Below are positions 8,671-42,016 of a stretch of 64,000 bases of DNA, in pieces. The translations under genes and the position numbers were made by a program. Positions within the stretch are counted from its first letter, which is position 1, and every line of letters begins with the position of its first letter. The notes beneath the pieces were generated by a model. That model worked only from the letters and a program-made list of their open reading frames with translations, was not told the origin of the DNA and ran no database searches. Source of the DNA: an uncultured Gammaproteobacteria bacterium (lineage in GTDB: Bacteria; Pseudomonadota; Gammaproteobacteria; GCA-001735895); assembly GCA_913061315.1 (NCBI GenBank), contig CAJXUC010000001.1:72197-136196 (forward strand). The letters are read 5' to 3'.

Positions 8671-8689
8671 TGTTTATATCAACACTGTA

Positions 8690-16065: not shown

Positions 16066-16115
16066 TTTAAATAATAATAGCCCGAAATGGGTACAAAATA
16101 CTGGGGAGAAGGATC

Positions 16116-20071: not shown

Positions 20072-20076
20072 TGTCG

Positions 20077-22671: not shown

Positions 22672-22690
22672 GTCATGCCCCTATAGCCAT

Positions 22691-23839: not shown

Positions 23840-23876
23840 AATTTCTCCTTGTTGATTCCCTATATAAAATATTATT

Positions 23877-24785: not shown

Positions 24786-25476
24786 TTTGTAACTCCAGTA
24801 TTGTCTTAACAATTTTCCATGCACCGCTTATATGGCGACGCATTAATAATTCAGCAAGTTCTTCGTCACGCTGTTCGATTGCAAAGGCAATTTGACGGTG
24901 TTGTGCAAGTGCCTTTGCAGGTCGAGTCGGTTGTTGACCTGACTGATAACGACACATGCGAATGAGTTGATAGAGCTCACCGTTTAAATTTTCCAAAATC
25001 CACTGATTTTGACTGGCACTGGCAATGCGGTGATGAAAGTCAATATTACCCTCTTCCTGAAGATAGGTTTTACCGTCAGATTCTGAAATAACTTGCTCAT
25101 GCGTGTCGAGAAGATTTTGCAGTGACACAATGGCCTCGTCACTCATATGCCTCGCAGCTAACCGAGCGGCCATACCTTCAAGCGCTTCACGTGCGGTGTA
25201 AATGTCATGCATGGTTTTGATGTCGAGCGTTACAACTCTTGATCCAGCATGAGGGACGCGTAGAATCAGTTTCATTTGCTCAAGGCGGTGGATCGCTTCG
25301 CGTAAAGGACCCCGACTAATACCATATTTGAATGCCAGTTCTGATTCTACTATTTTGCTACCTTGACTCAGTTCTCCCCGGATAATTTCCGCTTTAATGG
25401 ACTCATAGACCTTACCAGCCAAGGTTTTTGTCTGTGTCAGAGTGCCCTCGAGTTCTTTTTGACTGACTTCATTCAT
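24778..25476 (-). CDS. prpR: GntR-family (FadR/FCD subfamily) transcriptional regulator, likely methylcitrate-operon regulator
   Basis: 232 aa. N-terminal GntR wHTH (…[23 protein letters not shown]…) plus C-terminal all-helical FCD domain. First gene of the prp operon, with its stop overlapping the prpB start. Confidence 0.8.
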
Positions 25477-25479
25477 ATA

Positions 25480-25560
25480 ATTGTTAACAATAAAGGGAAA
25501 AATAGTAAATTTTTCGGGCTATTCTGCTCTGATAACCCAATAATTGTCAACAATAAAGAA
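25480..25560. promoter_or_regulatory. two copies of a 16-bp element ATTGTyAACAATAAAG, the first a perfect 12-bp palindrome, in the prpR/gltA divergent region
   Basis: ATTGTTAACAAT at 25480-25491 is a perfect palindrome 4 nt upstream of the prpR ATG. ATTGTCAACAAT at 25545-25556 is a one-off variant. Both are followed by AAAG. The t.GT…AC.a core fits FadR/GntR-type operators. Confidence 0.45.
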
Positions 25561-25819
25561 TTTGAGATTATTGTATCCCATATCCTATAGTCAATGGGTA
25601 AGGCGTCAATGCCAATCTGCAGGGTTTAATCCTGAGGATTGCATTATTTAATACTAGTCGTGATAACTACGTAAGGAATCAGATAATAAGGTATATTGCC
25701 GCTCTGCCATAAAATAGTAGGGTAAACACCCAGATCTTATATTCAAATCAATAGTCAGATACTAAGCCAATTTTCACAATATAGATTTTATCACTATCCG
25801 GACCAGAGAGAAGATATTC

Positions 25820-27121
25820 ATGTCAACCGTAACTATCATCGACGACGAAACCGGCAAAAAAGTACAAATGCCATTGTTAACTCCCACCAGTGGTCCAAAA
25901 ACAATCGACATCAGCATGCTATACAAAGAGTTAGGTTATTTCACTTACGATCCTGGGTTCATGTCGACCGCTAGTTGCTCAAGTGCTATTACCTTTCTTG
26001 ATGGTGAACAAGGCATTCTGCAATATCGTGGATATCCAATTGAGCAATTGGCAGAACATAGCAATTATTTAGAGGTTTGTTATTTACTATTGAATAACAA
26101 GCTACCAAATCGCTTAGAACTGACAGAGTTTGAAGTCGACATCACCAACCATACGATGCTCCATGAAGCATTAAAGAGCTTTTTTAGTGGTTTTCGTCGA
26201 GACGCCCATCCGATGGCTATTATGGTCGGTGTTGTAGGCGCATTAGCTGCTTTTTATCACGACCACATGGACATCAAAAATCCTGAGCATCGTAAGATTA
26301 CTGCTCACCGCTTGCTGGCAAAAATGCCAACCATTGCTGCTTGGAGTTATCGTTTTGCGACGGGTAAGCCTTTTGTTTATCCTCGCAACGATCTGAACTA
26401 TACCGAGAACTTCTTGCATATGATGTTCTCTATGCCAAGCAACGATTACAAACCAAGCTCGCTATTAGCTAAAGCGCTTGATTTAATCCTTATTCTGCAT
26501 GCCGATCATGAGCAAAATGCATCGACGTCTACTGTCCGTTTAGCTGGCAGCTCTGATGCCAATCCATTTGCAGCCGTTGCTGCGGGTGTTGCCACCCTTT
26601 GGGGTCCTGCGCATGGTGGTGCAAACGAAGCAGTAATTCGGATGTTAATTGATATTAATGAATCAGGTAAGCCTTTGCAGTTATTCATTGATCGTGCAAA
26701 AGATAAGAACGATGATTTTCGACTGATGGGTTTTGGTCATCGTGTTTACAAAAATCACGATCCGCGCGCCACCCTTATCCGTGAGATCTGTCACAAATTG
26801 CTCAACGAAATGGAAACAACCGGTGAACAGCAAAAAATGCTTGAAACCGCAATGGCTTTAGAAAAGGTAGCCTTAGAGGACGAATATTTCATCACCCGTA
26901 ACCTCTATCCAAATGTTGATTTTTATTCGGGTATTATTTTCCTTGCGATGGGTATCCCAATGAACATGTTCACAGTTATGTTTGCAATGGCCCGAACGGT
27001 GGGCTGGGTTGCGCAATGGAACGAAATGATATCTGAGCCAGGTTATAAAATTGGTCGACCAAGACAGCTTTATACCGGTCCAATTGATCTAAAATACGAT
27101 TCTATTGATAAACGCAGTTAA
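25820..27121 (+). CDS. gltA: citrate synthase (type II, hexameric type)
   Basis: 433 aa. Collinear with E. coli GltA by recall (…[20 protein letters not shown]…[14 protein letters not shown]…). Confidence 0.92.
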
Positions 27122-27198
27122 GCCCTAAGCTATTCATAAGTGATTTATACGTCCGATTGCTAAACCCAATAGGCCGCCTACACAGTAGAGAAAAAATT

Positions 27199-29778
27199 AT
27201 GTTACAGATATACCGAGACCACACCGCTGAGCGCGCTTTAGAGGGTATTCCTCCGAAGCCCCTAAGTGCACAACAAACAGCTGATTTAATAGAGCTCTTT
27301 AAAGCACCCGCTGCCGGTGAAGAAAACTATATGCTGGAATTGTTAACCCAGCATGTGCCGGCAGGTGTTGATGAAGCTGCTTATGTTAAAGCAGGCTTCC
27401 TAGCTGCAATTAGTTCAGGTGAGACGACTTCACCATTAATTGATCCTGTAAAAGCAATCGAAATCTTAGGCTCTATGTTAGGTGGCTACAATATCCAGCC
27501 ACTGATTGCTGGTCTAGATAATGAAGCAACAGGCGTCGCAGCTGTAAAGGCGCTTTCACATACACTGCTTATGTTTGATGCCTTCTATGATGTAAAGGAA
27601 AAAGCAGATGCTGGAAATACTTACGCGAAGCAAGCTGTCGAGTCTTGGGCCAACGCCGAGTGGTTCACCAGCAAGCCATCACTAGAGAACAAGGTAACCG
27701 TCACAATATTTAAGGTACCGGGCGAAACCAATACCGATGACTTATCCCCCGCACAAGATGCTTGGTCGCGTCCAGATATTCCGTTACACGGCAATGCCAT
27801 GTTAAAAATTGTCCGTGAAGGTGTCGCTGAAAACCCATTAGAGACAATCAAAAAATTAAAGGAAAAAGGTTTTCCAGTCGCTTATGTTGGTGACGTTGTT
27901 GGCACTGGTTCTTCGCGTAAATCAGCCACTAACTCAGTACTTTGGCACATGGGCCAAGATATCCCTTTTATTCCTAATAAGCGCAACGGTGGTTATTGTT
28001 TCGGTACTAAAATTGCACCTATTTTCTTCAATACAATGGAGGACGCCGGCGCATTACCGATCGAAATGGACGTTTCAGAAATGGAAACTGGCGATATTAT
28101 CGACGTCTATCCTTTTGCCGGAAAAGCCACCAAACATGGTAGCGAGGAAGTCATCGCAACTTTTGAACTCAGCACCAACGTTTTAAAAGACGAAGTTCAA
28201 GCCAATGGTCGTATTCCTCTGATTATTGGTCGTGGTCTCACTGGTCGAGCGCGCGAATCTCTAGGCTTACCTGTCAGTGATGTATTTGAAGTGCCTGAAG
28301 CCAAAGAAGACAGTGGCAAGGGGTTTACTCTTGCTCAAAAAATGGTGGGTAAAGCGTGTGGCGTTACGGGTGTTCGTCCCAACATGTATTGTGAACCCAA
28401 GATGACTACGGTTGGCTCACAAGACACAACGGGGCCGATGACGCGAGACGAGCTGAAAGATCTAGCCTGCCTAGGTTTCTCTGCCGACCTAGTGATGCAG
28501 TCTTTTTGTCATACAGCCCCTTATCCTAAACCCGTTGATGTGATTACCCATCACACGTTGCCAGATTTTATCCAGACTCGTGGTGGCGTGTCGCTGCGGC
28601 CGGGAGACGGCGTCATTCACTCGTGGATGAATCGCATGTTACTCCCCGATACGGTCGGTACTGGAGGTGATTCACACACCCGTTTCCCAATCGGTATTTC
28701 TTTCCCTGCGGGTTCTGGTTTAGTAGCATTCGCTGCTGCAACCGGTGTTATGCCACTGGATATGCCTGAATCAGTTTTAGTTCGTTTTAAAGGCGAAATG
28801 CAGCCAGGTATTACATTACGTGACTTGGTAAACGCGATTCCATACTCAGCCATTCAACGTGGACTGTTAACGGTCGAAAAGAAAGGTAAAAAGAATGTTT
28901 TCTCTGGTCGTGTCCTCGAAATTGAAGGCTTACCCAAGCTCAAAGTTGAGCAAGCATTTGAGCTATCAGACGCCTCTGCAGAGCGATCAGCCTCGGGTTG
29001 TAGCGTTAAACTAGATAAAGAGCCCATCATCGAATATATGAACTCAAACATCACCATGTTTAAGTGGATGATTTATGAAGGTTATGGTGACGTGCGTACC
29101 ATCAAGCGCCGCATTGAAGAAATGGAAGCCTGGTTGGCAAATCCGATATTAATGGAAGCTGACAGTGATGCTGAATATGCTGAAATTATTGAGATTGATC
29201 TCAACGAAATCAAGGAGCCTTTGCTGGCTTGTCCGAACGATCCTGATGATGTTAAGACTCTGTCGGACGTTGCGGGGACTAAAATAGATGAAGTCTTTAT
29301 TGGTTCTTGCATGACTAATATTGGTCATTTTCGCGCAGCGGGTAAATTGCTCGAGAAATTAGAAGGCCCGGTGGCAACTCGACTCTGGATTGCACCACCT
29401 ACCAAAATGGACGAAGCGCAGTTAACTGCTGAAGGTTATTATAATATCTTTGGTCGCACTGGAGCTCGTACTGAAATGCCCGGCTGTTCACTGTGTATGG
29501 GTAATCAGGCTCGAGTTGCAGCCAACAGCACAGTGGTTTCGACTTCAACTCGAAATTTTCCCAATCGCTTGGGCGCTGGAGCTGATGTCTACTTGGCGTC
29601 AGCAGAGTTGTCGGCTGTTGCGTCCATTATGGGCAAAATTCCAACCATGGAAGAGTATATGGTTTACGCAAATGATATTAATACGATGGCTGAAGACGTT
29701 TATCGTTATCTCAACTTTAACGAAATGGACAGTTACATGACGGCAGCAGAAAGTGCTTTTCCAGTGGCCGTTGTTTAG
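27199..29778 (+). CDS. acnB: aconitate hydratase B / 2-methylisocitrate dehydratase
   Basis: Start taken at [22 protein letters not shown]…, matching the AcnB N-terminus by recall (MLEEYRKHVAERAAEGI.PKPL); the six-frame ORF begins 14 codons earlier. HEAT-like N-domain plus aconitase catalytic domains with Cys ligands. Confidence 0.9.
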
Positions 29779-29834: not shown

Positions 29835-30575
29835 CGGCAGTTAAAACAATAAATCAAGATCGTTACTGATGGTAAAGCAGGTTGGAAGGGCGCATCGGTG
29901 ACATGGCGCCTCTTTTAACCAATCCTTCAGAAAAGTCTTTAATGATGCACAAACTGGTACGCATGATTTGTAAGCTATATCCGCTAAAGAATAAAAACGG
30001 AAAGAAGTCTGGATGTAATTAACCATCGAATATGTATGTTTTCATTTTAGTGATTAAACTTTCTACACCTGAATTAGTTGGCCAACCTATATAATCAAAT
30101 CAATTTTAAATTCAGTTAAGCCAATTCAATTCGACCTAGCATTTCTACTGAAAATTTTATTCTAAGGCTAGACTCAGTGATTTTAACTTTTACTTAAAAT
30201 CGGTTAAATTAAAACAACACTCAGTCACATAACGAAACCTTCGAACTAGGCGTGCAACATAGTGCTGAGGGAACAAAAGGGTAGTCGTTTGTATCGCTAA
30301 TGAAACCATTGATGCCATTACACCTATTATCTGGTCGTAGAACATTATTTAAGTCATAGGTACAGCTGATGAAGTAACAGTGGGAAAGATTAATATAAAA
30401 GATGAAACTAATGATGGGCCTCAATTCTCAATAGGCAGTTTCAAATAATTTGGTTATGATTGAAAGTAGTCTTAAAGGTAAACACTGTTTCATACAGGCT
30501 AAATTGGTTTTATATTTGACCAATCAAAGCTGAAGGTAGATGTTTCCTTACTATCAGGTGGATAATATTCATTTT

Positions 30576-31613
30576 ATGACAAAACCCGCTCGCTCAAAGC
30601 TGACCCTCCGTGGAGAAAGAGTCACCATTGACTCAAATGAAGCCATTGATATAGTCAGTGCTATCTTTGAGAAAATTGGTTGCAATAAAAGAACGGCTCG
30701 TACCGTAGCTGAGCATCTGGCTGATACCAGCCTATGTGGGATGGAAAGCCATGGGCTGATGCGTACTCTTCAATACACTGAACAATTTCAGAACGGTTAT
30801 ATGGATCCATTTGCAGTACCCCGTATTGTCACGACACTGAGGGGTGCGCAAGAGGTTGATGGTTTTGGTGGCATCGGTATTCCAGCCATGAGTCTGGCCT
30901 ACCGACATGGCATGAAGATTGCCAAAAAAGCTGGAATATCTGCATTGGCGGTACGTAACGTTGGTCATACTGGTCGGCATGGTGCCTTTGCTGATGAAGC
31001 TGCAGAAGAGGGATTTTTAACCTTGTGTACTGGCGGAGGAAATCGAGAGATCTGGCGACAGGTTGCACCTCATGGTGGCGCAAAAGCCCTCCTGCCAACA
31101 AATCCCTGGTGTGCTGGTATTCCAGGAGGTGAGCAGGGTTCAGTGGTAATGGATTTTGCCACATCGAAAATCGCCGGAGGTTGGATTTATGCGGCACAAA
31201 GTGCTAACGCACTGTTACCGGAGGATTGTATCATTGATGCTAAAGGTAACCCCACACGAGAACCTGCGGACTATTTTAATGGAGGGGCGATTCTGCCTGC
31301 CGGTGAGCACAAAGGTTACGCACTGGCACTAATGGGTGAGTTAATCGGTGAAGCTATGCTTGGCCCATCAACAACAGAATGCAATTGGATATTGATTACA
31401 ATTGATACCAAGCGCTTTCGAGAACCCTCTGCGATGCGTTGCGTTGCTGAGGGATTGCTTGAAGAGTTACGCCAGTGTCCACCAGCATCAGGCTTTGAAC
31501 GAGTTGAAATCCCGGGAGAACGTGAGCGTGAATATCGAACCCAATCCAACGGAGCCATCTCCATACCAGAAGATACTTGGCAGCAGATTCTGGCGCTGCA
31601 GACAGCCCTGTAG
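30576..31613 (+). CDS. Ldh_2-family (malate/L-lactate/ureidoglycolate/sulfolactate dehydrogenase-type) NAD(P)-dependent oxidoreductase
   Basis: Start placed at MTKPARSKLTLRGERV…; the ORF extends to 30540. Family pattern: …AEHLADTSLCGMESHGLMR…, …VRNVGHTGRHGAFA…, …GGAKALLPTNPW…. Confidence 0.75.
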   Translation: MTKPARSKLTLRGERVTIDSNEAIDIVSAIFEKIGCNKRTARTVAEHLADTSLCGMESHGLMRTLQYTEQFQNGYMDPFAVPRIVTTLRGAQEVDGFGGIGIPAMSLAYRHGMKIAKKAGISALAVRNVGHTGRHGAFADEAAEEGFLTLCTGGGNREIWRQVAPHGGAKALLPTNPWCAGIPGGEQGSVVMDFATSKIAGGWIYAAQSANALLPEDCIIDAKGNPTREPADYFNGGAILPAGEHKGYALALMGELIGEAMLGPSTTECNWILITIDTKRFREPSAMRCVAEGLLEELRQCPPASGFERVEIPGEREREYRTQSNGAISIPEDTWQQILALQTAL

Positions 31614-31772: not shown

Positions 31773-33158
31773 CTAGCCTGAAAGCTTTTGGTGAACTGTA
31801 TCCAGTGCTAACTGATAGCGGTCAAACATGTCGTTAATCTGCGTTTCAGTTATTATCAGTGGTGGGCAAACACCCACACCATCACCCGGTAACGCACGCG
31901 TAATAAGGCCATGCTGACGCGCGGCAGCCATTACTTGTGCAGCAACTTTGTCACTGGGTGGGAATTGCTCCTTAGTCGATTTATCTTTGACGAGTTCGAA
32001 AGCACCAATTAAACCAATGCCTCGCGCATCACCAACTAAAGGATGCGATCCGAATTCGCCAATACGTTTCATGAACGTTTTAGAAACAGTTCGGACGTGT
32101 TCTAGCATATTGTCATCACGATAGATATTCAAGGTTTCTAGGGCTACCGCAGAGGCTACCGGGTGGCCGCCATAAGTATTGCCGGTCCCAAATACGCCAT
32201 GTGTGTTACTGCCACTAACAAAGGCATCGTACATTCTCTCACTGATCAGAACAGCACCAATAGGTTGATAAGCGGATGATAATTGTTTGGCGCAGGTAAT
32301 CATGTCTGGCTTGATGTTGTAGGTATCACAGCCCCACATGTTTCCAGTCCGGCCAAAACCACAAATGACTTCGTCAGCAACAAACAGGATGTTATGTTTT
32401 TTTAACACGGCCTGTACTTTTTCAAAATAATGGGCGGGTGGAATAAGAACGCCACCAGCACCCATAACCGGTTCAGCGAAAAACGCACCGATCGTATCTG
32501 GATCAGCATCAAGAATTTGCTGCTCAAGCTCATTCACGATGCGGTCGGTAAACTCGGCTTCACTTTCTCCATCCCGACCATTTCGATAATAATGGGGTGT
32601 TTCGCAATGCATCACGTCTATTGCGGGTAAATCAAATCCATTCTGTGCGTAAGGCAATCCAGTTAAGCTACCAGCGGCAACGGTAACACCATGATAAGAG
32701 CGTTTTCGAGCAATCAGGCGCTTCTTTTTGGGTAGTCCCAATGCGTTAAAATAATACCAGACCATCTTGATTGCAGAATCAACGGCTTCCGAACCAGAGT
32801 TAACTAAAAATGCACGGCTAATGCCTTCAGGTGCAATTTCCACCAATCGCTCACTGAGTTCAATGGCGGGTTGGGTCGAACGATGACTGAAAAGATGTGA
32901 ATAAGGTAATTTTTTAAATTGAGCCATTGCTGCATCAACCAAGCGGGATTCACTAAAACCCAACGAGGTACACCAAAGTCCAGACATGGCTTCGACTAGA
33001 CGATTGCCTTTATCATCATCAACATAGATACCCTCACCACCCACGATGGTGAAAGGTCCAAGGTCTTCGTGCCCACTGAGGTTGGTAAAAGGATGAAGAA
33101 CGTACTTCCTATCAGTATCTGCTGAGGTATTAGCTGAATTTGGGGCAGAATTATTCAC
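31773..33158 (-). CDS. class-III (omega-amino-acid:pyruvate-type) PLP aminotransferase
   Basis: Close collinearity with Vibrio-type omega-transaminases by recall (…NSGSEA.D…KMVW…; …FFAEPVMGAGGV…; …DEVICGFGRTGN.WGC…; PLP-lysine context TCAK). The six-frame ORF begins with TTG at 33188; a GTG at 33158 preceded by GGAG is the more likely start. Confidence 0.85.
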   Translation of the reverse strand: MNNSAPNSANTSADTDRKYVLHPFTNLSGHEDLGPFTIVGGEGIYVDDDKGNRLVEAMSGLWCTSLGFSESRLVDAAMAQFKKLPYSHLFSHRSTQPAIELSERLVEIAPEGISRAFLVNSGSEAVDSAIKMVWYYFNALGLPKKKRLIARKRSYHGVTVAAGSLTGLPYAQNGFDLPAIDVMHCETPHYYRNGRDGESEAEFTDRIVNELEQQILDADPDTIGAFFAEPVMGAGGVLIPPAHYFEKVQAVLKKHNILFVADEVICGFGRTGNMWGCDTYNIKPDMITCAKQLSSAYQPIGAVLISERMYDAFVSGSNTHGVFGTGNTYGGHPVASAVALETLNIYRDDNMLEHVRTVSKTFMKRIGEFGSHPLVGDARGIGLIGAFELVKDKSTKEQFPPSDKVAAQVMAAARQHGLITRALPGDGVGVCPPLIITETQINDMFDRYQLALDTVHQKLSG

Positions 33159-33432
33159 GATCAATCTCCGGTTAGTGCAACGAATCAATTTGATCCATCT
33201 GTTGGTAAAATGCGTCAGTTAAATAGACGCCTACTTTACCAGCAGTAAAATTAGCAGGCGGTTTCTGCAAAAGAGACTGCAAGACTTAGAGTATAAAACT
33301 TAAAGGCCCCTTATTCAAAGAATTATAAAAGGCCTGTTTACTAATACCAAATGGGTCAACTCAATGCATATTGGCAAACTGAGTTGAAAGCTATTGAATT
33401 CAATTGACGACTGATTTAGGTAAAAATTATCC

Positions 33433-34641
33433 TCATTTCCAAGGTTCTGGGCCCTCTGGTATAACTGTATTTTTACCACGAACAATATCACCCTGTTGAT
33501 CATACATTGGCAGTGAACATAGTTTTGCTCTATGAACCTCACCGTCAATGCACATCACATTAAGATCCGTGTCGGTAAATGTTCCATTATCGTCTAAACG
33601 GACAATTGCAACACCACATTGTTGAAAAGGAGACCAAGAAGAAGAAGTAACCATACCGATATTATTACCGTTAAATGTTAAGCTACGGCCTCGCTCAGCT
33701 ATGCTATCGTGAACTCGCATGCCGTAAGTTCGGTTTTTTTTATTCGATTTTTCCAAGGCTACACGTCCAATAAAATCAGCTTTTTCCATATTAATGAAAT
33801 GGCCTAGCCCCGCTTCAAAAGGTGTCGTCATCTCTCCAAAATCGGTATGGCTGAGTAATCCGGCTTCAATTCGGCGGGCACGGAATACCGGAGTACCTGT
33901 CAGCATCATTTGGTATTTCTGACCCAATTCCCAAATACGATTACCGATGGCCTCTGCGTCATTTTCGGGACGAAGGTAAAACTCCCAACCAAGTTCATTC
34001 GAAAAACCAGTCCGTGTAATAATAACGGGCTGGCCAGCAATGCTCACTTCAGCAATATCGAAGTAACGCCAAGGGTCGGGGAAATCATCATCAATCACAT
34101 CTTTTAATAAATCCATGGCTCGTGGACCTTGTACCTGACTAACCCAAACGTTGGGATCAGAAATAGTGACATCCAGATCACCTATATGAGCCATGTACCA
34201 CTTGGTCAGTTCACCATCGGCCTGGGCCATCCAGAACTTGTCTTCAGCCAGCCTTAACAAAACGCCATCATTAATCATACAACCATTATGATATAGCGCA
34301 AAATTATAGGAGCACCGACCCACTTTTACGCCACTGACGTCTCTTGCAAAGACACGGTCAGAAAATTTTTCAGCATCCGGTCCACTGATTTGAACGGGGA
34401 ATTCACCCGTATTCCGAAGGATTACTTTTTGACGAACGGCCCAGTATTGTTCGTCATCAGTCACATTGTTTAAATGCTCTGGCGTCATGCGGTTATTATA
34501 AAGCTGATATTCTGGATCAAAGGGTAACTCCAAATAAGATAAAGGATGCACCTTCATACCTGAGGCCAAATGATGAGGACGTGCCCCTTTGGCTGGCAAC
34601 GCTTTTATTGCGTAGCGTGATTTTACAATGTCATCATGCAT
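33433..34641 (-). CDS. GcvT/aminomethyltransferase-family folate-dependent protein (demethylase-like; DmdA-like hypothesis)
   Basis: 402 aa. Aligns block-for-block with GcvT (…ISGPDAEKF…VGRCSYNFALYHNGCMINDGVLLRLAEDKFW… vs GcvT …L.G…FL…DV.KL..GKA.YS.MLN..GGVIDDLIVYY..ED.F…; …TRTGFSNELGWEFYL vs TTGYTGEAGYEIAL; …RIEAGLLSHTDFGE vs RLEAGMNLYGQEMDE). No P/H/L glycine-cleavage partners nearby. Confidence 0.8.
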   Translation of the reverse strand: MHDDIVKSRYAIKALPAKGARPHHLASGMKVHPLSYLELPFDPEYQLYNNRMTPEHLNNVTDDEQYWAVRQKVILRNTGEFPVQISGPDAEKFSDRVFARDVSGVKVGRCSYNFALYHNGCMINDGVLLRLAEDKFWMAQADGELTKWYMAHIGDLDVTISDPNVWVSQVQGPRAMDLLKDVIDDDFPDPWRYFDIAEVSIAGQPVIITRTGFSNELGWEFYLRPENDAEAIGNRIWELGQKYQMMLTGTPVFRARRIEAGLLSHTDFGEMTTPFEAGLGHFINMEKADFIGRVALEKSNKKNRTYGMRVHDSIAERGRSLTFNGNNIGMVTSSSWSPFQQCGVAIVRLDDNGTFTDTDLNVMCIDGEVHRAKLCSLPMYDQQGDIVRGKNTVIPEGPEPWK

Positions 34642-34767: not shown

Positions 34768-35853
34768 TCACTCGTTGATTAATGGTTTAAAAGAAGTATT
34801 GATGCGATTGATAATTGTCCAGATAAAGTTGGCTCTAGCCCCGCCAAGAAGGTCTTTAGCTTTGTTGCGCTGCTTTGCTTCGCGTAATTCATAGTCAATA
34901 GCACGGTTAAGATCATGGCCTATATTCAATGCAATCTGACCAGGTCAATATAATCGCAGTTGCGCCATAGTTTTAGACAGTGTGTCGTCATACTAACCGT
35001 GACCCGATTACAAATTTCAAGCAGGCACGGATTTTTACAAGCTGCATCAGAAAAGGTCTCTTCTCGTCTGGTGTCATATCCTGCCAGAACCATCTTGTGC
35101 TTCACGGAGGGCCTCAAGCATGGCGTGCTTGCCATGGCAGCTTGTGTGAAATTTATGTTGTACTGATTCAAAAATATAGTCTGAACTGGGTTCATACCAC
35201 ATTGCCGGTTTATGAGCCTCACTGGCATGCGTTGTAGAAAAGCCCTGAAGCGTATTAATGGTATCTGGGTTGGTGAAAAAACCATCTGCGGTTAGGATGG
35301 CTACCTCAATCCCATTTGAAGCTGCCATATCTGCAGGATAGGGTTTACCCATTGTGCCAAATTGGGCCTCGATGCCTGGATTACGGGTCGCACAAAGTCC
35401 AAGGGCGTGAGTTGTCTGCTCAACACTCAATTCCAGAATTCGACAGGCTACTTCAGAGTCAATCAAACCAGCATCAATAAAATTATCGATCGAATTAAGG
35501 CCTATTTTTTCAGCCGTCGCCATTACAGCTGGTATGACAGCAACGCTCGGATGGCCAAAATTAAGAAAGTGTGTATCGTCGTAATGGAATGGGTGAGAGA
35601 TTGCGCCGTTATAAAGAGCTGCAGCACGTGCAGATAACGTCACCCGACTGCCAATAATACTGGCCTGCGGTGAACCGCCTTCGTCAAGTAGCATTTGGAG
35701 AACGATTCGGCTGACTGGCTCATCACGCCCAACGATAACAACTGTAATCCAGTCTCTTAAAGATAATTCCGCTATCTTACGAGCGCTTTTCGGGGTCAAC
35801 GTGCGTTTAGTGTTAATCGCAAAAGTAGCAATTTTCTGGCTAATACCCATCAA
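34768..35853 (-). pseudogene. MmgE/PrpD-family (2-methylcitrate dehydratase-like) gene interrupted by at least two frameshifts
   Basis: ORF 35074-35853 carries the MmgE/PrpD N-domain (…LSLRDWITVVIVGRDEP…GHPSVAVIPAVMATAEKIG…HKFHTSCHGKHAMLEALREA) and stops. The reading continues in a second frame (ORF 34926-35285) and then a third frame (…IGHDLNRAIDYELREAKQRNKAKDLLGG…* ending ~34768). Confidence 0.55.
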
Positions 35854-35877: not shown

Positions 35878-37035
35878 TTAATAAGATCGCGGCATGCCCA
35901 GCACATGTTCGGCAAGGTAGCTGAGTATCATATTGGTCGAAATCGGAGCAACTTGATATAAGCGCGCCTCACGAAATTTGCGTTCAATATCGTATTCCAC
36001 CGCAAAACCAAAACCACCGTGAGTCTGCACACAAGCTTCAGCTGCCGCCCAAGAAGCATCAGCCGCTAACATTTTAGCCATGTTAGCTTCCTCACCTGGA
36101 TTACCACCAGACTCATAGAGGCGAATGGCTTCTCTTAATACCAATTCTGCTGCACGCATTTCTGCATAAGCTTTTGCAATTGGAAACTGCACACCTTGGT
36201 TCTGACCAATTGGCCTGCCAAAAACCGTGCGTTCACTGGCGTAACGGCTGGAGGTATCAGTGAACCATTTGGCATCACCAATACACTCAGCGGCAATAAG
36301 AATACGTTCGGCATTCATGCCAGAAAGAATATAACGAAAGCCCTTACCCTCTTCACCAATAAGGTTCTCAGCTGGCACCCTCACATCGTCAAGAAATACT
36401 TCAGTGGTGGAGTGGTTCATCATGGTTTTTATTGGACGAATGGTAAGTGAATTTTCATCGCAATCGCGCATATCAACGAGTAGCACAGACAGGCCATCTG
36501 TTTTTTTCGCAACTTGATCTAGGGGTGTAGTTCGGCACAATAACAACATTAAGTCTGAATGTTCCGCACGCGAGGTCCAAATTTTCTGACCGTTAACAAT
36601 ATAGTCATCACCGTCTCGTCGAGCCGTAGTGCGCAGTGCAGTGGTATCGGTGCCACTACTGGGTTCAGTTACGCCAAAGGCTTGAAGTCGCAAGCTACCA
36701 TCGGCGATACCGGGCAAAAAGCGTTGTTTTTGTTCTTCTGACCCATGACGTAATAAAGTACCCATAGTATACATCTGTGCGTGGCAGGCGGCTGCATTGC
36801 AACCCTCGTGATGAATAGTCTCGAGGATCGCAGAAGCTGCCGAAATAGGTAATTCTGATCCGCCATAAGTTTCAGGTATTAACGCCGCTAAATAGCCTGA
36901 TTCTGTAAGTGCTTGCACGAATTCGATTGGATAGGCTTGTGTTTGATCTTTTTTGCGCCAATAAGCGCCATCGAAGTCTTTGCATAGCCGGCGCAATCCT
37001 TCTCTAATTTCTTCATGGTCAAGTTCATATTTCAT
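35878..37035 (-). CDS. acyl-CoA dehydrogenase family protein
   Basis: 385 aa ACAD fold (…LRLQAFGVTEPSSGTD…, …GEEGKGF…, C-terminal four-helix bundle with catalytic Glu region …YQVAPISTNMI…). Its ATG overlaps the stop of the upstream CoA-transferase by 1 nt. Confidence 0.88.
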   Translation of the reverse strand: MKYELDHEEIREGLRRLCKDFDGAYWRKKDQTQAYPIEFVQALTESGYLAALIPETYGGSELPISAASAILETIHHEGCNAAACHAQMYTMGTLLRHGSEEQKQRFLPGIADGSLRLQAFGVTEPSSGTDTTALRTTARRDGDDYIVNGQKIWTSRAEHSDLMLLLCRTTPLDQVAKKTDGLSVLLVDMRDCDENSLTIRPIKTMMNHSTTEVFLDDVRVPAENLIGEEGKGFRYILSGMNAERILIAAECIGDAKWFTDTSSRYASERTVFGRPIGQNQGVQFPIAKAYAEMRAAELVLREAIRLYESGGNPGEEANMAKMLAADASWAAAEACVQTHGGFGFAVEYDIERKFREARLYQVAPISTNMILSYLAEHVLGMPRSY

Positions 37036-38195
37036 TATTTGGTACCTAATGGGCTGAATTCAGTTCTAAGTGAATCACCCTGTTGATTTAACAAGGGCAC
37101 AATTTTAGGACGTGCCACATCGGTTTTCACGGGCAGATCCGCCATTTTAATGGTGACTGCACCAAACTGTGCTTCAAACTCACGTAAAAATTCATGTTCA
37201 GACAAGTCATCGACACTGCTCAATTGACCGCAAGCAATTTTATTCAGGTTAAGTAATTCGATCAGCTCAACTCGGGTCTTTTGAGAAAATAGAGCGTCGA
37301 TCGTTTGGTGTACCTCATCGCGATTAGCGACACGGTCCGTGTTGTCTTTAAATCGCGGGTCATCAGCCAGCTCAGGTTGGCAAAGCACCGTTTCGCAAAA
37401 AACTCGCCATTCCCGATTACTCTGAATCGCGATCAAAACTTGAGCCTCATCTCGACTAGTGAAAGCACCATAAGGTGCAATTAATGCATGCGTCAGGCCG
37501 AGTCGCTTCGGAGCACCACCAAAATAACGTTGTGCCATCAGCGGCATGTTCATCCAGTCTGCCATTACATCAAACATCGAAATTGATAAGTCAATGCCTT
37601 CACCAGTTCGACTGCGTTGTAATAAGGCACGTAAAATCGCCGAAAATGCGGTTAAACCTGTACCGATGTCACAGATTGATATGCCAACGCGTGTCTCATC
37701 TTCGGCCGTGCCCGTTACCGAACAAATGCCGCTCTCGGCTTGCACTAAAAAGTCATAAGCTTTTTTATTGGCTGCAGCACCAGAGTTACCATAGCCATTA
37801 ATTTCACAACAAATTAATTTCGGGTTTTGCTGACGTAGGGTGTCACCATTGAACCCACGCCGTGCTAAAGCACCGGGTGCAAGATTGTGTAAAAAAACAT
37901 CGGCCTCACGCAGCATATTAAGCAACAAGTCAACATCCTCCGTCTGGTTAAGGTCGATACAAATCGATTCCTTACCACGGTTAAGCCAAGCGAATATACT
38001 GCTATTACCATCGGCACCGCGGTCATAGGCTCGCGCAAAATCGCCTTCTTTTCGTTCGACTTTAAGCACTCTGGCACCCGCATCCGCCAGCAGCAAACCA
38101 CAATAAGGTGCCGAGACAGCTTGCTCGATAGAAACCACTAAAAAGCCATCAAGTTCGCGATTAAGTCCCATACATTTCCCCATTAGACAGAACAT
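37035..38195 (-). CDS. family-III CoA-transferase (CaiB/BaiF/Frc/itaconate-CoA-transferase type)
   Basis: CoA-transferase III signature N-terminus (…LDGFLVVSIEQAVSAPYCGLLLADAGARVLKVERKEGDFAR…) and interlocked-dimer fold length. The start may be the internal MGLNREL (38171). Confidence 0.85.
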   Translation of the reverse strand: MFCLMGKCMGLNRELDGFLVVSIEQAVSAPYCGLLLADAGARVLKVERKEGDFARAYDRGADGNSSIFAWLNRGKESICIDLNQTEDVDLLLNMLREADVFLHNLAPGALARRGFNGDTLRQQNPKLICCEINGYGNSGAAANKKAYDFLVQAESGICSVTGTAEDETRVGISICDIGTGLTAFSAILRALLQRSRTGEGIDLSISMFDVMADWMNMPLMAQRYFGGAPKRLGLTHALIAPYGAFTSRDEAQVLIAIQSNREWRVFCETVLCQPELADDPRFKDNTDRVANRDEVHQTIDALFSQKTRVELIELLNLNKIACGQLSSVDDLSEHEFLREFEAQFGAVTIKMADLPVKTDVARPKIVPLLNQQGDSLRTEFSPLGTK

Positions 38196-38288: not shown

Positions 38289-39218
38289 GTGGTTATGGAT
38301 CTTAAACAAATTAAAACATTTATTTGCGTCGCAGAGTCAGGCTCCTTAAGCAGGGCATCAGACCGGCTACACACAGTTCAGCCAGCGTTATCGCGCCAAA
38401 TTAAACTGCTTGAACATGAAATTGGAGTCGACTTGTTTACCCGCCATGTGCGCGGTATGGAATTGACGGAAGCAGGACAGGCATTTTTCGATAGAATGAC
38501 GGGACTTGTACGTCAAATTGAAACCTCAGTGCATGACATTCAATCCATGCGAGGGAAAATAAAAGGGCACGTGGCACTTGGCATTATGCCAACTATTAGC
38601 ACCGTATTGTCGGTCAGACTAATGCGGCGAGTAAAAGAAGAGTTCCCTGATATAGAGTTACGTATTGTAGAAGGTTACTCAGTCCATCTGCTCGAATGGC
38701 TTCAGCGTGGTGATATCGATGTAACGTTTCAGTATGGTTCCTCAAGTGATTATCATTTGCGCAGCGAAGACATGTTGTTCGAAGACATCGTGCTAATCAG
38801 TGCACCCAATTCACTACCTGAGATATCAGCTGAAGTCAGCCTCGAAGCCGCCTCAAAATTGCCCTTGGCGTTACCCAGTGAATCTTTTGGTTTACGACGC
38901 GTGCTCGAATCAGCCGGCGCCGCCAACGGTGTCTCAATTACACCAAGCTATCAAGTCGACTCATTTTGGGTGATAAAGTCACTGGTAGAGTCAGGTATAT
39001 GTCATTCACTCATGCCGGTTTCATCAGTTTTAGAGCAGGTCGAGGCAGGTTTAATTGAGACCCGACAGATCACACCACCAATCCAACGCCAGATTGTTTT
39101 ACTGACACCGAATGACCGTGTCAATACTCGGGCGACGGATGCCGTCATAGGTTTGTTAAAAAAAGAAGTGGATGAGATGATAGCTTGTGGAGAATGGCCT
39201 GCGGTCGCTATTTCATAG
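38289..39218 (+). CDS. LysR-family transcriptional regulator (divergent from the CoA-transferase operon)
   Basis: 309 aa. N-terminal LysR wHTH (…LKQIKTFICVAESGSLSRASDRLHTVQPALSRQIKLLE…) plus LysR substrate-binding domain. Confidence 0.88.
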   Translation: MVMDLKQIKTFICVAESGSLSRASDRLHTVQPALSRQIKLLEHEIGVDLFTRHVRGMELTEAGQAFFDRMTGLVRQIETSVHDIQSMRGKIKGHVALGIMPTISTVLSVRLMRRVKEEFPDIELRIVEGYSVHLLEWLQRGDIDVTFQYGSSSDYHLRSEDMLFEDIVLISAPNSLPEISAEVSLEAASKLPLALPSESFGLRRVLESAGAANGVSITPSYQVDSFWVIKSLVESGICHSLMPVSSVLEQVEAGLIETRQITPPIQRQIVLLTPNDRVNTRATDAVIGLLKKEVDEMIACGEWPAVAIS

Positions 39219-39355
39219 TTTGAAGTAAAGTCTGTTAAAAACGTAGGGTTCTATTATCAAATAATGGCATAGTGAGGTTAACCCCATTCTATTTGTATTA
39301 TGTTAATTTGTGCTCATAATCCTAACACTTGATAATTTACTCTCGGTGCACACTG

Positions 39356-40222
39356 ATGAATGTCGAACAACGCCCGGTTAAATCACGCAGAAGCTTTATT
39401 TTTTCACCGGGACTTAAGCCAGAAATGTTTCCTAAAGCACTCGCTTCAGGTACCGATATTGTTTGTGTAGAACTAGAAGATGGCATCGCGCCCAAAGACA
39501 AATCAGAAGCTCGCCTTAAAGCATTGCAACTATTCGAAACCCCTCAAGCAGATGACGGTGTTGAGCGAATTGTGCGCATTAACAGCATGCGAGAATCATT
39601 TGGTATTGCGGATGTGCAAGCGATTCTGGCCACTAAGACACCACCGCCTGCTCTGATGATGCCCAAGGTTAAAAATTCAGATGAAGTTATTATGTTGGAT
39701 AATTTGCTAACCGAGGCTGGACATGACACGCGACTACATATCATCATCGAAACCAATGCTGGGCTAGAAGCCTGCTTTGACATTGCCCATTGCAGCCCTC
39801 GAATCGACGCGTTATTTTTTGGTGGTGTCGATATGGCTGCCGAATTGAGATGTGAAAACGCTTGGCAACCATTGCTTTACGCGCGCTCGCGGGTTGTTCA
39901 TGCCGCTGCTTCCGCGGGGCTTGATGTGGTCGATGTTCCCTTTCTGGACTTAAACGATCCTGAAGGTATGGTTTTAGAAGCGCAACAAGCAAAATCGTTG
40001 GGTTTTTCTGGAAAAGGGTCGATTCACCCAAAACAAATTGCCGAACTGAATGCTGTTTTCACCCCAACGGATGAATCAATAGCCCGTGCGAAACGAATTA
40101 TTGAAACCTTTGAAGAAGCCGACACGGGGTTGGTTGTGATCGATGGTAAACTCATTGAGAAACCAGTATTAAGGGACATGTACCGCATACTTGCTATTGC
40201 TGCCGCAGCCCAAAAAAGCTAA
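39356..40222 (+). CDS. CitE-like / HpcH-HpaI-family acyl-CoA lyase (citrate-lyase beta, malyl-/citramalyl-CoA lyase-like)
   Basis: Start at MNVEQRPVKSRRS…; the ORF extends to 39329. CitE-like pattern: …SFIFSPG…, …DIVCVELEDGIAP.DK…, …HIIIETN.GL…, …FGG.DMAAEL…. Confidence 0.78.
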   Translation: MNVEQRPVKSRRSFIFSPGLKPEMFPKALASGTDIVCVELEDGIAPKDKSEARLKALQLFETPQADDGVERIVRINSMRESFGIADVQAILATKTPPPALMMPKVKNSDEVIMLDNLLTEAGHDTRLHIIIETNAGLEACFDIAHCSPRIDALFFGGVDMAAELRCENAWQPLLYARSRVVHAAASAGLDVVDVPFLDLNDPEGMVLEAQQAKSLGFSGKGSIHPKQIAELNAVFTPTDESIARAKRIIETFEEADTGLVVIDGKLIEKPVLRDMYRILAIAAAAQKS

Positions 40223-40289: not shown

Positions 40290-41093
40290 GTGTCATTACC
40301 CTCCAAACATTACGAAACACTGTTAGTAACTGCTGCAGCAGAACACGTATTGCAAATCACCTTAAATCGGCCTGAATCATCGAACGCGTTTAATACACAC
40401 ATGGCACGTGAGATGATCGAGCTAATTGAAGGGCTTTCACTCGACCCTGAAGACAACCGCTGTATTTTACTCACAGGGGCTGGTGAGCGCGCTTTTTGTG
40501 CCGGTGGTGACTTGAAGGAACGTAAAGGCATGACCGATCAAGACTGGGGCAAACAGCATTTGACATTCGAACGCATGGTGCGCGCCATAATCAATAGCCC
40601 GACCCCGATTATTGCCGTGATTAACGGCGCAGCCTACGGTGGTGGATGCGAACTAGCAGGTGCGGTTGATTTTGCATACGCGTCTGACAATGCACGTTTT
40701 GCACTAACCGAAACCTCATTGGGAATTATTCCAGGCGCTGGAGGTACCCAAACACTGGCAAGAGCAATGGGCGAGCGACGTTGCAAGGAGTTAATCCTTA
40801 GCGCAAAACCATTCAGCGCCACCGAGGCATTGCAATGGGGTCTTCTCAATGCAGTCTACCCACTCGCTGATCTATTACCCGCAGCACTTGGTGCCGCAAA
40901 ACGAATTGCTGCCAACGCGCCCATTGCGGTAAGGCAAGCAAAACAATCGATTCATCGGGGTCTGCAAATGTCTTTAGCCGATGGTCTGGCATTCGAAATA
41001 GAAGCTTATAATCGTACCGTTCCAACTGATGATCGCTATGAAGGTGTGCTGGCCTTCAACGAAAAACGTAAACCACAATTTAAGGGGCGTTAA
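40290..41093 (+). CDS. enoyl-CoA hydratase/isomerase (crotonase superfamily)
   Basis: 267 aa. Crotonase oxyanion-hole segments (…LLTGAGERAFCAGGDLKE…, …IAVINGAAYGGGCELAGAVDFAYAS…) and catalytic Glu context (…TETSLGIIPGAGGTQ…). Confidence 0.88.
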   Translation: MSLPSKHYETLLVTAAAEHVLQITLNRPESSNAFNTHMAREMIELIEGLSLDPEDNRCILLTGAGERAFCAGGDLKERKGMTDQDWGKQHLTFERMVRAIINSPTPIIAVINGAAYGGGCELAGAVDFAYASDNARFALTETSLGIIPGAGGTQTLARAMGERRCKELILSAKPFSATEALQWGLLNAVYPLADLLPAALGAAKRIAANAPIAVRQAKQSIHRGLQMSLADGLAFEIEAYNRTVPTDDRYEGVLAFNEKRKPQFKGR

Positions 41094-41098
41094 TTAAA

Positions 41099-42016
41099 AT
41101 GACGGATCTAGCAACGGTAAGGGAAGTTGGCCTGCGTGATGGACTGCAATTAGTTAAACGCACATTGCCAACTGATATAAAAATTGAATGGTGCCAAACA
41201 CAGGCAGCCTGTGGCTTTAGAGAAATGGAGGTGACCTCTTTCGTGCCACCTAAAGTCATTCCACAATTTGCCGACGCTGAGTCTGTTTTAAAAGCCGCTC
41301 AATCTATCAGCAATATGCGCGCAGCGGTATTAGTACCCAACCTGAAATGGGGGTTACAGGCACTGGATCATGGCGCTAAAAAGATTACCTTTGTATTGTC
41401 AGTCAGTGAAGCCCACAACATGGCTAATGTTAGACGCACTACCGACACGTCGATTGCCGAGTTTTCCGAATTGATTGCTGAACGTAATTGCAGAGGACTG
41501 CAAGACAGCGTGATGATGTCCGTGGCATTGGCCACGACCTTCGGTTGTAGTTTACAGGGTGAAGTAGCCGAACCGCGTGTCTACAATGTTGCCGAGCAAG
41601 TGCTCATGGCTGGCGCGCAGGAGCTCAATATGGCAGACACCGTGGGTTATGGTAACCCTATACAGGTTAAACGAATATTTACTGAAATCTTGCAATTGGC
41701 GGATAAAGTGCAGGTAGCAGCTCATTTTCATGATACCCGAGGCATGGGCCTTGCCAACGCAGTCGCAGCGCTTGAAGCCGGTGTGCGCGAATTTGATGCG
41801 TCGCTTGGCGGTCTTGGGGGCTGTCCGTTTGCGAAAGGAGCCTCTGGCAATATCGCCACGGAAGATTGTGTTTATCTGTTGGAAAGTCTTGGTTTTGCAA
41901 CCGGTATTAATATTCTAGCAATGCTTGAAGTACGCAAAAATCTGAAGGACTGGTTACCCGACGAGCCACTAGAAGGCAAGTTATTAAAGGCAGGTTTAGC
42001 GGCCACGTTTGAATGA
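41099..42016 (+). CDS. HMG-CoA-lyase-like (DRE-TIM metallolyase) acyl-CoA lyase
   Basis: 305 aa. HMGL family (…VREVGLRDGLQ…, …HFHDTRGMGLANAVAALEAG…, …GGLGGCPFAKGASGNIATED…). Starts 6 nt after the crotonase gene. Confidence 0.85.
   Translation: MTDLATVREVGLRDGLQLVKRTLPTDIKIEWCQTQAACGFREMEVTSFVPPKVIPQFADAESVLKAAQSISNMRAAVLVPNLKWGLQALDHGAKKITFVLSVSEAHNMANVRRTTDTSIAEFSELIAERNCRGLQDSVMMSVALATTFGCSLQGEVAEPRVYNVAEQVLMAGAQELNMADTVGYGNPIQVKRIFTEILQLADKVQVAAHFHDTRGMGLANAVAALEAGVREFDASLGGLGGCPFAKGASGNIATEDCVYLLESLGFATGINILAMLEVRKNLKDWLPDEPLEGKLLKAGLAATFE

Follow-up and report, generated by a model that had tools for sequence, protein, structure and literature searches.

The 64,000-nucleotide stretch of DNA analysed here (the window), from contig CAJXUC010000001.1 of an uncultured Gammaproteobacteria bacterium (assembly GCA_913061315.1), carries a gene for a 402-aa GcvT-like protein, which probably marks an undescribed route for the removal of methyl groups from an ocean metabolite. 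As judged from its sequence, the protein is a member of a new, separate and widespread marine subfamily of the GcvT/DmdA fold. It is tentatively proposed, with somewhat less than even confidence, to be a stand-alone tetrahydrofolate (THF)-dependent one-carbon (C1) transferase that would act in the manner of DmdA, without being DmdA, on a methylated onium-type carboxylate, the skeleton of which would then be degraded as coenzyme A (CoA) esters. An earlier note, made from the sequence alone, had singled out the gene as encoding a GcvT-family demethylase-like enzyme, with dimethylsulfoniopropionate (DMSP) or another methylated sulfonium or ammonium compound as its possible substrate.

33433..34641, minus strand: putative GcvT-like stand-alone folate-dependent C1 transferase (ATG start, 402 aa, Pfam GCV_T and GCV_T_C)

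The GcvT-like protein and its family

In a Pfam scan the 402-aa protein scores 136.3 bits on GCV_T (PF01571; E 1.4e-39, cutoff 25.6) and 34.2 bits on GCV_T_C (PF08669; E 2.4e-08, cutoff 25.9). An AlphaFold2 model built from a 34-sequence alignment, with a mean predicted local distance difference test (pLDDT) score of 89.9, has the three-domain fold of T proteins, and in Foldseek it matches GcvT (1WOO), DmdA (3TFH) and dimethylglycine oxidase (DMGO; 1PJ6) with query TM-scores (TMq) of 0.81, 0.81 and 0.83 respectively. The folate-contact residues D125, Y112, E220, Y222, R257 and E259 are present in the alignment, with D125, E220, Y222, R257 and E259 invariant within the family and through the reference clades; these include the Asp near N10, the Glu and Tyr of the GxE(x)Y block and the Arg of RxE. 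With Pfam thresholds, fold and folate residues all in agreement, the protein belongs to the GcvT/aminomethyltransferase superfamily, and the full fold with folate-binding blocks that had been read from the sequence is confirmed. Proteins 99.5–100% identical to it occur on four independent marine metagenome contigs (ENA, JGI, TARA), so the open reading frame (ORF) is real and not an assembly artefact.

More than 3,000 homologues were retrieved at E≤1e-10; the top matches are about 403 aa long and 60–92% identical to the query, and the family of ~403-aa proteins as a whole spans 57–100% identity. Its hosts are marine Gammaproteobacteria, Rhodobacteraceae (Rhodobacterales), SAR116, Rhodospirillaceae and the SAR11 isolates HIMB1695 and HIMB1709, and the nearest named genomes to the query are uncultured marine Gammaproteobacteria metagenome-assembled genomes. 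Cultured carriers also include Phaeobacter inhibens P66 (plasmid pP66_d; WP_102875617.1, 58% identity), two more P. inhibens plasmids and a Tritonibacter scottomollicae plasmid. About 130 alignment columns are invariant in the family, including columns in N-terminal (~45 aa) and C-terminal (~20 aa) extensions that are absent from DmdA and GcvT. Databases name family members only 'aminomethyltransferase' (family protein) or 'glycine cleavage T', and no characterised member was found in the literature.

Some copies are mobile. An island of ~15 kb carrying a family member is present with identical protein accessions on P. inhibens P66 pP66_d (locus L107) and the T. scottomollicae plasmid (L108), where it adjoins relaxase and type IV secretion system genes, which indicates recent horizontal transfer on mobilisable plasmids. 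In Pelagibacter sp. HIMB1695 and HIMB1709 (L013 and L018), three GcvT-family paralogues lie within 10 kb, namely the family member (403 aa), a GcvT-like protein of 367 aa and a DmdA-like one of 448 aa (236 bits on the DmdA model). Genes for two acyl-CoA ligases, two crotonases and one aldehyde dehydrogenase (ALDH) are interspersed with them, and together they make up a 'methyl-group island' in what is a streamlined genome.

The position of the family was assessed with a bootstrapped neighbour-joining tree of 89 sequences, which sampled family members, representatives of the 50%-identity clusters obtained when 1.8 billion proteins were searched exhaustively, paralogues taken from the fetched loci and four solved references. 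The query family forms a clade with 100% bootstrap support, nested within a larger clade of stand-alone proteins that has 96% support. Separate clades hold DmdA, Tdm and GcvT respectively, with 3TFH grouping with other representatives, and support is only 22% at the node that links the larger clade of the query to the group containing DmdA. A 380-aa paralogue in another locus (L023, 12293-19533), 35% identical to the query and within the same 96%-supported clade, lies between an AidB-type acyl-CoA dehydrogenase (ACAD) and an ADP-forming acyl-CoA synthetase plus molybdopterin oxidoreductase, so that the wider clade, too, associates with CoA-activating enzymes.

No curated NCBIfam cutoff is reached by the 402-aa protein, and its top two profiles are DmdA (NF009133/PRK12486; 185.8 bits versus a cutoff of 410) and the C-terminal domain of Tdm (184.9 versus 1100, matching only profile positions 400-762). 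Three GcvT models give 134, 105 and 77 bits (cutoffs 300, 236 and 459), soxA gives 129.7 (cutoff 1164), and the LigM and DesA models give 56.8 and 71.9 (cutoffs 580 and 800) while covering only the N-terminal half. Identity to each of the solved DmdA, Tdm C-terminal domain and two GcvT structures is 28-30%. On these comparisons, the protein is not a member of the DmdA, GcvT, Tdm, sarcosine oxidase/dimethylglycine dehydrogenase (Sox/DMGDH) or LigM families.

The protein shares with GcvT (1WOO, 1YX2) its fold (TM 0.81, rmsd 2.2 Å) and its folate-binding blocks, and some databases call it 'glycine cleavage system aminomethyltransferase T'. That it is an ordinary glycine-cleavage T protein, or a subunit of the sarcosine/dimethylglycine oxidase type, is nevertheless effectively refuted, since it misses every GcvT cutoff, falls outside the GcvT clade, and has no gcvH or gcvP, FAD domain or Sox subunits in the window. 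None of the ~50 window ORFs scanned encodes GcvH/P/L, sarcosine oxidase or Dgc proteins, as the earlier note had also seen, and the stand-alone status that it assumed is upheld by the phylogeny. The substrate of GcvT, moreover, is a protein-bound aminomethyl-lipoyl group. Identity as a sarcosine or dimethylglycine oxidase or dehydrogenase was rejected on the soxA score, the absence of an FAD-binding DAO domain and the lack of SoxBDG genes in the window.

The C-terminal domain of Tdm (9Q59) is the best match among solved structures by sequence (E 1e-35, ~30% identity); it shares Glu216 and Gly126 with the query, and both proteins are placed in methylated-osmolyte catabolism. Tdm, however, is a fusion of ~760-790 aa (9Q59, ~790 aa) whose N-terminal domain makes formaldehyde, whereas the query is stand-alone, lacks the DUF1989-type N-terminal domain and lies in another clade, so that identity as Tdm was rejected. 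LigM and DesA are, like the query, stand-alone GcvT-fold enzymes; they make 5-methyl-THF by direct methyl transfer and often stand beside ligase, hydratase-lyase and ALDH steps of ferulate/vanillate catabolism, an arrangement resembling the SAR11 gene order described below. They are only distant relatives and differ in length (450-470 aa) and fold similarity (Foldseek TM 0.65-0.69), there are no ring-cleavage genes near the query family, and identity with them was rejected on their scores.

The top profile match is DmdA, also a marine, stand-alone protein of ~370-400 aa with the three-domain GcvT fold, in which folate residues E204, Y206 and D108 correspond to E220, Y222 and D125 of the query, and which is likewise encoded beside CoA-activating enzymes, ACADs and crotonases. 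The partner enzymes of the query family, however, are not orthologues of DmdB, DmdC and DmdD, and its terminal extensions have no counterpart in DmdA. Ratified gammaproteobacterial DmdAs (SAR92, complementation-tested) are 35-40% identical to reference DmdAs, and a homologue at 21-24% identity did not complement a dmdA mutant (PMC10746254); the query is 28% identical to 3TFH. The DMSP-specific Trp of DmdA (W171 in the alignment of PMC7487153) is W197 in 3TFH and corresponds to an invariant Phe213 in the query family, although Phe is also found in two of six DmdA-clade representatives. Further invariant residues of the family, R51, R76 and R256, replace Met35, Trp58 and Glu238 of the DmdA clade, and Q200 of that clade is replaced by Glu216. 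The three arginines are compatible with a more anionic substrate.

Gene neighbourhoods across loci

In total, 108 loci were collected and the flanking ORFs of 106 were clustered, 104 of which carry a family copy. Dereplication at 90% identity gave 40 groups, within which gene families were counted to ±7 genes; the counts are lower bounds, many contigs being short. The most frequent partners are ALDH (16 groups), PrpD-like proteins (15), ACAD (14) and zinc-dependent alcohol dehydrogenase (Zn-ADH; 11), followed by CoA-transferase, crotonase and HMG-CoA-lyase-like proteins (HMGL) with 10 each, FA_hydroxylase (6), acyl-CoA ligase and Rieske oxygenase (5 each), DddP and molybdenum oxidoreductase (3 each) and cytochrome P450 (2). 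The gene immediately upstream is most commonly PrpD-like (12/39 groups), then ALDH (8/39), and in the clusters the ACAD gene always adjoins the PrpD-like gene. Five arrangements recur:

Type A (~30 loci, 57-100% identity to the query): HMGL, enoyl-CoA hydratase (ECH) and, optionally, CitE and a LysR regulator in one direction; family-III CoA-transferase, ACAD, PrpD and GcvT-like, in that order, in the other
Type B (alphaproteobacteria): two PrpD genes, divergent from LysR, ECH, HMGL, DctPQM, alcohol dehydrogenase (ADH), ALDH and GcvT-like
Type C: DctPQM, ADH, ALDH, GcvT-like and FA_hydroxylase, all co-directional
Type D: FA_hydroxylase, GcvT-like, then a SABATH-type methyltransferase or a P450, co-directional
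Type E (~27 SAR11-type loci): LysR, divergent from GcvT-like, acyl-CoA ligase, crotonase, optionally a second ligase, and ALDH

The ECH, HMGL, LysR and PrpD proteins of type B are 52-69% identical to those of the window. In type A variants L002, L017 and L049, ALDH, optionally preceded by CitE and ADH, is inserted before the GcvT-like gene in a single direction of transcription; these operons, running from CoA-transferase through ACAD, PrpD and ALDH to the GcvT-like gene, tie all the modules into one pathway. Because such arrangements recur across loci, it is well supported that the CoA-ester enzymes belong with the GcvT-like gene, the juxtaposition not being one of chance, and the link to CoA-ester metabolism that the earlier note drew from one locus holds for the ~30 loci of type A.

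A contrary explanation is that the CoA genes form a self-contained module for branched C5-dicarboxylates, alongside which a GcvT-like gene of unrelated C1 or amino-acid function merely travels. The CoA module does closely parallel the characterised Ict-Mcd-Msi-Ccl cluster discussed below, types C, D and E have the GcvT-like gene but not that module, and the high identity between alpha and gamma lineages suggests transfer as an island. Yet PrpD is the immediate upstream, co-directional neighbour in the 12 groups across the full 57-100% range of identity, ALDH/ADH genes stand co-directionally between PrpD and the GcvT-like gene in L002, L017 and L049, and the SAR11 and P. inhibens arrangements, though unrelated, likewise place CoA-activating enzymes and crotonases beside the gene, which makes incidental juxtaposition improbable.

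Lineage-specific neighbours give a further indication of the substrate. DddP DMSP lyase (674 bits, cutoff 600) is encoded one or two genes downstream in five loci of a ~60%-identity lineage (L063, L069, L071, L076 and L079), a GbcA-like Rieske oxygenase directly downstream in nine loci, and a GbdR/GlxA-type regulator near the gene. A gene of the SBP56 family, the methanethiol oxidase family, lies eight to nine genes away in two unrelated lineages, at least four lineages, that of the P. inhibens island among them, have an S/N-oxide reductase of the molybdopterin guanine dinucleotide (MGD) type, and cytochrome P450 is a neighbour in some. DddP, SBP56, the S/N-oxide reductase, the Rieske oxygenase and the GbdR-like regulator therefore fit a methylated sulfonium or ammonium compound, and to this extent the substrate idea of the earlier note has gained support. 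In the five DddP loci, a GbcA-like Rieske oxygenase gene likewise comes after the GcvT-like gene, and upstream they also carry an adenylosuccinate-lyase-like gene, a gene for a MoxR-type AAA ATPase-like protein (assigned by eye) and a third conserved gene.

DMSP itself, the other part of that idea, is an unlikely substrate. The family could in principle be a functional DMSP demethylase, as a non-orthologous or very divergent DmdA, with the CoA-transferase or ligase, ACAD and crotonase serving as DmdB, DmdC and DmdD and the ALDH oxidising acetaldehyde; DmdA is the top NCBIfam profile, DddP and SBP56 genes lie nearby in the lineages named above, and the SAR11 order of GcvT-like, ligase, crotonase and ALDH mirrors the dmdA-acuH-dmdB-dmdC logic (PMC10746254). 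This is considered quite unlikely, as the tests of DmdA membership by score, identity and clade failed, Glu238, Trp58 and Met35 of DmdA are replaced by Arg, the ACAD is not DmdC-like, and PrpD, CitE and HMGL have no role in DMSP demethylation and would be left unexplained. In addition, according to PMC12366255, hosts such as P. inhibens have a canonical DmdA, which would make a second copy redundant.

In Rhodobacteraceae loci L024, L026, L033, L035 and L036, the GcvT-like gene is followed by one for a SABATH-type (Methyltransf_7) methyltransferase, a type that is rare in bacteria. Genes for trans-3-hydroxy-L-proline dehydratase and a DUF3604 protein are also nearby in these loci, as are BKACE and amidase genes in some of them.

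Partner enzymes and the proposed pathway

The earlier note had suggested that the ACAD and crotonase classes match DmdC and DmdD and that the CoA-transferase could substitute for DmdB, roles for which no homology support was found. The nearest characterised relatives of the window CoA-transferase act on dicarboxylates (YfdE, SUGCT, succinate-glutarate and mesaconate transferases). Matches of the window ACAD in the Protein Data Bank (PDB) are generic short/branched-chain ACADs, with no DmdC-type match among them. The PrpD-like protein falls on the IRG1/iminodisuccinate (IDS)-epimerase branch, its closest solved structures being 7bra, 2hp0 and 6r6u (B. subtilis 'IRG1', IDS epimerase). For the SAR11 ligase, a PDB search at E≤1e-60 gave no match, a threshold too strict to judge DmdB-likeness. 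The ALDH and Zn-ADH partners are generic and uninformative on the substrate.

The ACAD-PrpD pairing instead matches a methylsuccinate/itaconate arrangement. In the itaconate cluster of Pseudomonas and Cupriavidus, Gonner et al. 2025 identified the ACAD as a methylsuccinyl-C4-CoA dehydrogenase and the MmgE/PrpD protein as a (S)-(R)-methylsuccinate isomerase, whose gene always adjoins that of the ACAD; all MmgE/PrpD substrates characterised so far share a C4 1,4-dicarboxylate backbone that carries a substituent at C2/C3 (PMC12290011). The cluster of Ict, Mcd, Msi, Ich and Ccl described there resembles the present one in its family-III CoA-transferase, ACAD-PrpD adjacency, CitE/HpcH-type lyase and LysR regulator, and in the chemistry of 2-substituted C4-dicarboxylates; the order CoA-transferase, ACAD, PrpD with CitE nearby is found in the window and ~30 loci. 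It differs in lacking GcvT-like, ALDH, ADH and HMGL genes, and here the lyase scores 263 bits against the 375-bit RipC_Ccl cutoff, the hydratase is a crotonase and not a MaoC-type Ich, and B. subtilis 'IRG1' and IDS epimerase are the nearest to the PrpD-like protein. By this analogy, the CoA-transferase, ACAD and PrpD with the RipC/Ccl-like lyase look like a module for 2-substituted succinates rather than DmdB, DmdC and DmdD.

Other routes were considered and set aside. The homarine operon homABCDER contains no GcvT-family protein (PMC13236597). For a 3-sulfinopropionyl-CoA desulfinase route, in which a second demethylation of methylmercaptopropionate (MMPA) would be followed by Act/Acd, the ACAD reaches 183 bits against a desulfinase cutoff of 600; it keeps the catalytic Glu of the isovaleryl-CoA dehydrogenase (IVD) type, as judged by eye only. 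A carnitine (cai-type) set of CoA-transferase, ACAD and ECH was rejected at 96-155 bits on the Cai equivalogs (cutoffs 413-540) and is kept as a chemical analogy only. Pantoate or mevalonate oxidation through ADH and ALDH finds a ketopantoate-reductase-family gene in one Rhodobacteraceae lineage and no other support.

The proposed enzyme would bind a small, anionic methylated onium substrate, a dimethylsulfonium or quaternary ammonium carboxylate, which probably is, or becomes, a 2-substituted C4-dicarboxylate, and would pass one of the substrate's methyl groups straight to N5 of THF. The PrpD-like enzyme would epimerise the skeleton left after demethylation, the family-III CoA-transferase (in SAR11 an AMP-ligase) would activate it, the ACAD would desaturate it and the crotonase would hydrate it, and lyases of the CitE/HMGL type would split the product into acetyl-CoA and a small acid or aldehyde. 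In other lineages, a tripartite ATP-independent periplasmic (TRAP) transporter, Zn-ADH and ALDH would feed the pathway from a hydroxy-acid precursor; the order of transporter, then ADH and ALDH, suggests that a hydroxy-acid is oxidised to a dicarboxylate. Neighbouring oxygenases would strip further, later methyl groups. In the window, the feeder ALDH and ADH are absent, with an omega-transaminase in their place, and the PrpD-like gene has decayed.

The fold is compatible with two chemistries: a redox-neutral transfer of methyl to N5 of THF, as in DmdA and LigM, and the capture of a C1 unit at the formaldehyde level as 5,10-methylene-THF, as in Tdm, DMGO and GcvT. With modest confidence the former is favoured, because in most loci, those of the window, SAR11 and P. 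inhibens types among them, the gene has no oxygenase next to it, so that the enzyme appears able to act alone; because the many family-specific invariant residues suggest a defined small-molecule site; and because the order ADH, ALDH, GcvT-like suggests action on the acid product.

The competing view is that the protein is a C1-capturing partner, which would condense THF with the formaldehyde, hemiaminal or hemiacetal that an independent oxidative demethylase (FA_hydroxylase, Rieske or P450) sets free, much as the GcvT-type domains of Tdm, dimethylglycine oxidase and SoxA do. Three unrelated oxygenase classes, all typically oxidative demethylases, swap beside the constant GcvT-like gene (FA_hydroxylase in 6/40 groups, GbcA-like Rieske in 5/40, P450 in 2/40), and MocD, of the FA_hydroxylase family, provides a precedent for O-demethylation. 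The best solved-structure match is, as noted, the Tdm C-terminal domain. Against this, there is no oxygenase near the loci of the window, SAR11 and P. inhibens types and none of the three classes in the 64-kb window, and the family-specific invariants (the three Arg and both terminal extensions) suggest recognition of a defined substrate and not of formaldehyde only. C1 capture is therefore judged unlikely, although it is the strongest of the competing explanations.

Several observations weigh against the proposed direct demethylation of an onium carboxylate. The sequence fits methyl transfer and methylene capture alike; the family has Glu216, as do GcvT and Tdm, where the DmdA clade has Gln (Q200); and a demethylase-type oxygenase adjoins the gene in about one third of the groups. 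No metF, folD or purU gene is linked in ~105 loci. The SAR11-type loci are without PrpD, CoA-transferase and ACAD, so that the dicarboxylate part of the proposal may fail for the family as a whole, and no candidate natural substrate fits every genomic context. Finally, with the GcvT-like protein 70% identical between alpha and gamma lineages, some of the gene co-occurrence may come from en-bloc horizontal transfer.

The cluster in the window and its significance

In the window, the GcvT-like gene is part of a type A cluster, with two further genes on its downstream side:

34771..35853, minus strand: MmgE/PrpD-family (IRG1/IDS-epimerase-like) pseudogene, in three frames, with ~40 residues missing
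35878..37035, minus strand: acyl-CoA dehydrogenase, 385 aa (Pfam Acyl-CoA_dh N/M/1; below every equivalog cutoff)
37035..38195, minus strand: family-III CoA-transferase, 386 aa (Pfam CoA_transf_3, E 4.9e-94)
38289..39218, plus strand: divergent LysR-family regulator (Pfam HTH_1 and LysR_substrate)
39329..40222, plus strand: CitE/HpcH-family acyl-CoA lyase, RipC/Ccl-like (Pfam HpcH_HpaI), recurring in the clusters
40290..41093, plus strand: crotonase-family enoyl-CoA hydratase, ECH (Pfam ECH_1, E 1.1e-68)
41099..42016, plus strand: HMG-CoA-lyase-like enzyme, HMGL (Pfam HMGL-like; NCBIfam PRK05692, 276 bits, cutoff 246)
31773..33188, minus strand: class-III pyruvate-type omega-transaminase, directly downstream of the GcvT-like gene (Pfam Aminotran_3; NCBIfam PRK06105, 663 bits, cutoff 517)
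30540..31613, plus strand: Ldh_2-family dehydrogenase (Pfam Ldh_2), of doubtful membership in the system

The five neighbours named in the earlier note (transaminase, Ldh_2, ACAD, CoA-transferase and crotonase) are all present; the PrpD pseudogene, the divergent LysR, the CitE/RipC-like lyase and the HMG-CoA-lyase-like gene had been overlooked. As partners, its first two fare differently from the rest: the placement of the transaminase behind the GcvT-like gene is confined to the window lineage (seven loci: L001, L019-21 and L027-29), and Ldh_2 is not a conserved partner, only distant relatives (25-28% identity) being found near the gene in some Rhodobacteraceae loci. The transaminase start is possibly an internal ATG, giving a protein of 404-461 aa, and it matches omega-transaminases in the PDB at E 1e-148. 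A second Ldh_2 paralogue lies at 61181-62245, and the copy on the transaminase side is frameshifted in the sibling assembly L019 (13029-14036).

Searching with intact orthologues (tblastn) recovers residues 1-287, 329-362 and 364-436 of the PrpD pseudogene in different frames, and Pfam detects MmgE_PrpD_N on a 259-aa fragment. Two independent sibling assemblies, L019 and L020, carry the gene in broken form as well, whereas L001, with a GcvT-like protein 92% identical to that of the window, has an intact copy of 440 aa. The CoA-transferase stop and the ACAD start overlap by 1 nt at 37035 and ECH and HMGL are separated by 5 nt, which suggests translational coupling within each pair. Orthologues of LysR (54-56% identity) occupy the equivalent position in L017, L022 and L023; the alphaproteobacterial loci L022 and L023 also carry orthologues of ECH (68-69% identical) and, beside it, of HMGL (62-63%).

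The ALDH, ADH, TRAP-adjacent and oxygenase genes of its relatives are missing from the window lineage, and no such oxygenase is encoded in the whole 64 kb. A TRAP transporter, DctP with a fused DctQM (824 aa), is encoded elsewhere in the window (14670-18590, plus strand); its DctM part is 36-46% identical to DctM proteins that are operonic with ADH, ALDH and the GcvT-like gene in other gammaproteobacterial loci, and it could be the displaced transporter of the pathway. At 18878-29778 lies a complete methylcitrate-cycle operon of the AcnD/PrpF type (prpB, prpC, acnD and prpF, minus strand) together with a gene for a GntR regulator, and gltA and acnB come next; as the operon is directly beside the studied cluster, propionyl-CoA handling is encoded next door. 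The 2.1 kb between an IclR regulator and a GMC oxidoreductase (8670-10783) contain no ORF longer than ~70 aa and may be decayed genes or non-coding DNA. There is no Rfam match in this stretch or anywhere else in the window, and promoter and terminator scans of the window for riboswitch or RNA control gave no enrichment over shuffled sequences.

It is conceivable, if doubtful, that a so far undescribed demethylation pathway operates across the ocean with this family as its key enzyme, and that it serves a methylated metabolite that is not DMSP, glycine betaine or trimethylamine N-oxide (TMAO). Such a pathway would join THF-dependent methyl removal to a methylsuccinate-like CoA route in SAR11, SAR116, roseobacters and marine gammaproteobacteria. 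Candidate substrates for it are a sulfonium or S-oxide relative of DMSP, such as dimethylsulfoxonium propionate (DMSOP), whose demethylation is a stated open question (PMC10686828), or a betaine that oxidation turns into a substituted succinate, for instance the homoserine-betaine head group found in betaine lipids.

DmdA, Tdm and other THF-dependent demethylases steer the routing of methyl groups, sulfur and nitrogen from abundant marine osmolytes, and with it the fluxes of dimethyl sulfide (DMS) and methanethiol. The present family is abundant, with thousands of metagenomic homologues, strongly conserved and operonic, and loose DmdA or GcvT criteria in metagenomic surveys would misassign it. 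Once its substrate is identified, marine C1 and organosulfur/organonitrogen cycling would gain a further step and probably an entire CoA-dependent pathway, and there would also be an explanation for why an itaconate/methylsuccinate-like module is common among oligotrophic marine bacteria. The cultured carriers P. inhibens P66, T. scottomollicae and Pelagibacter HIMB1695 and HIMB1709 open this question to direct testing.

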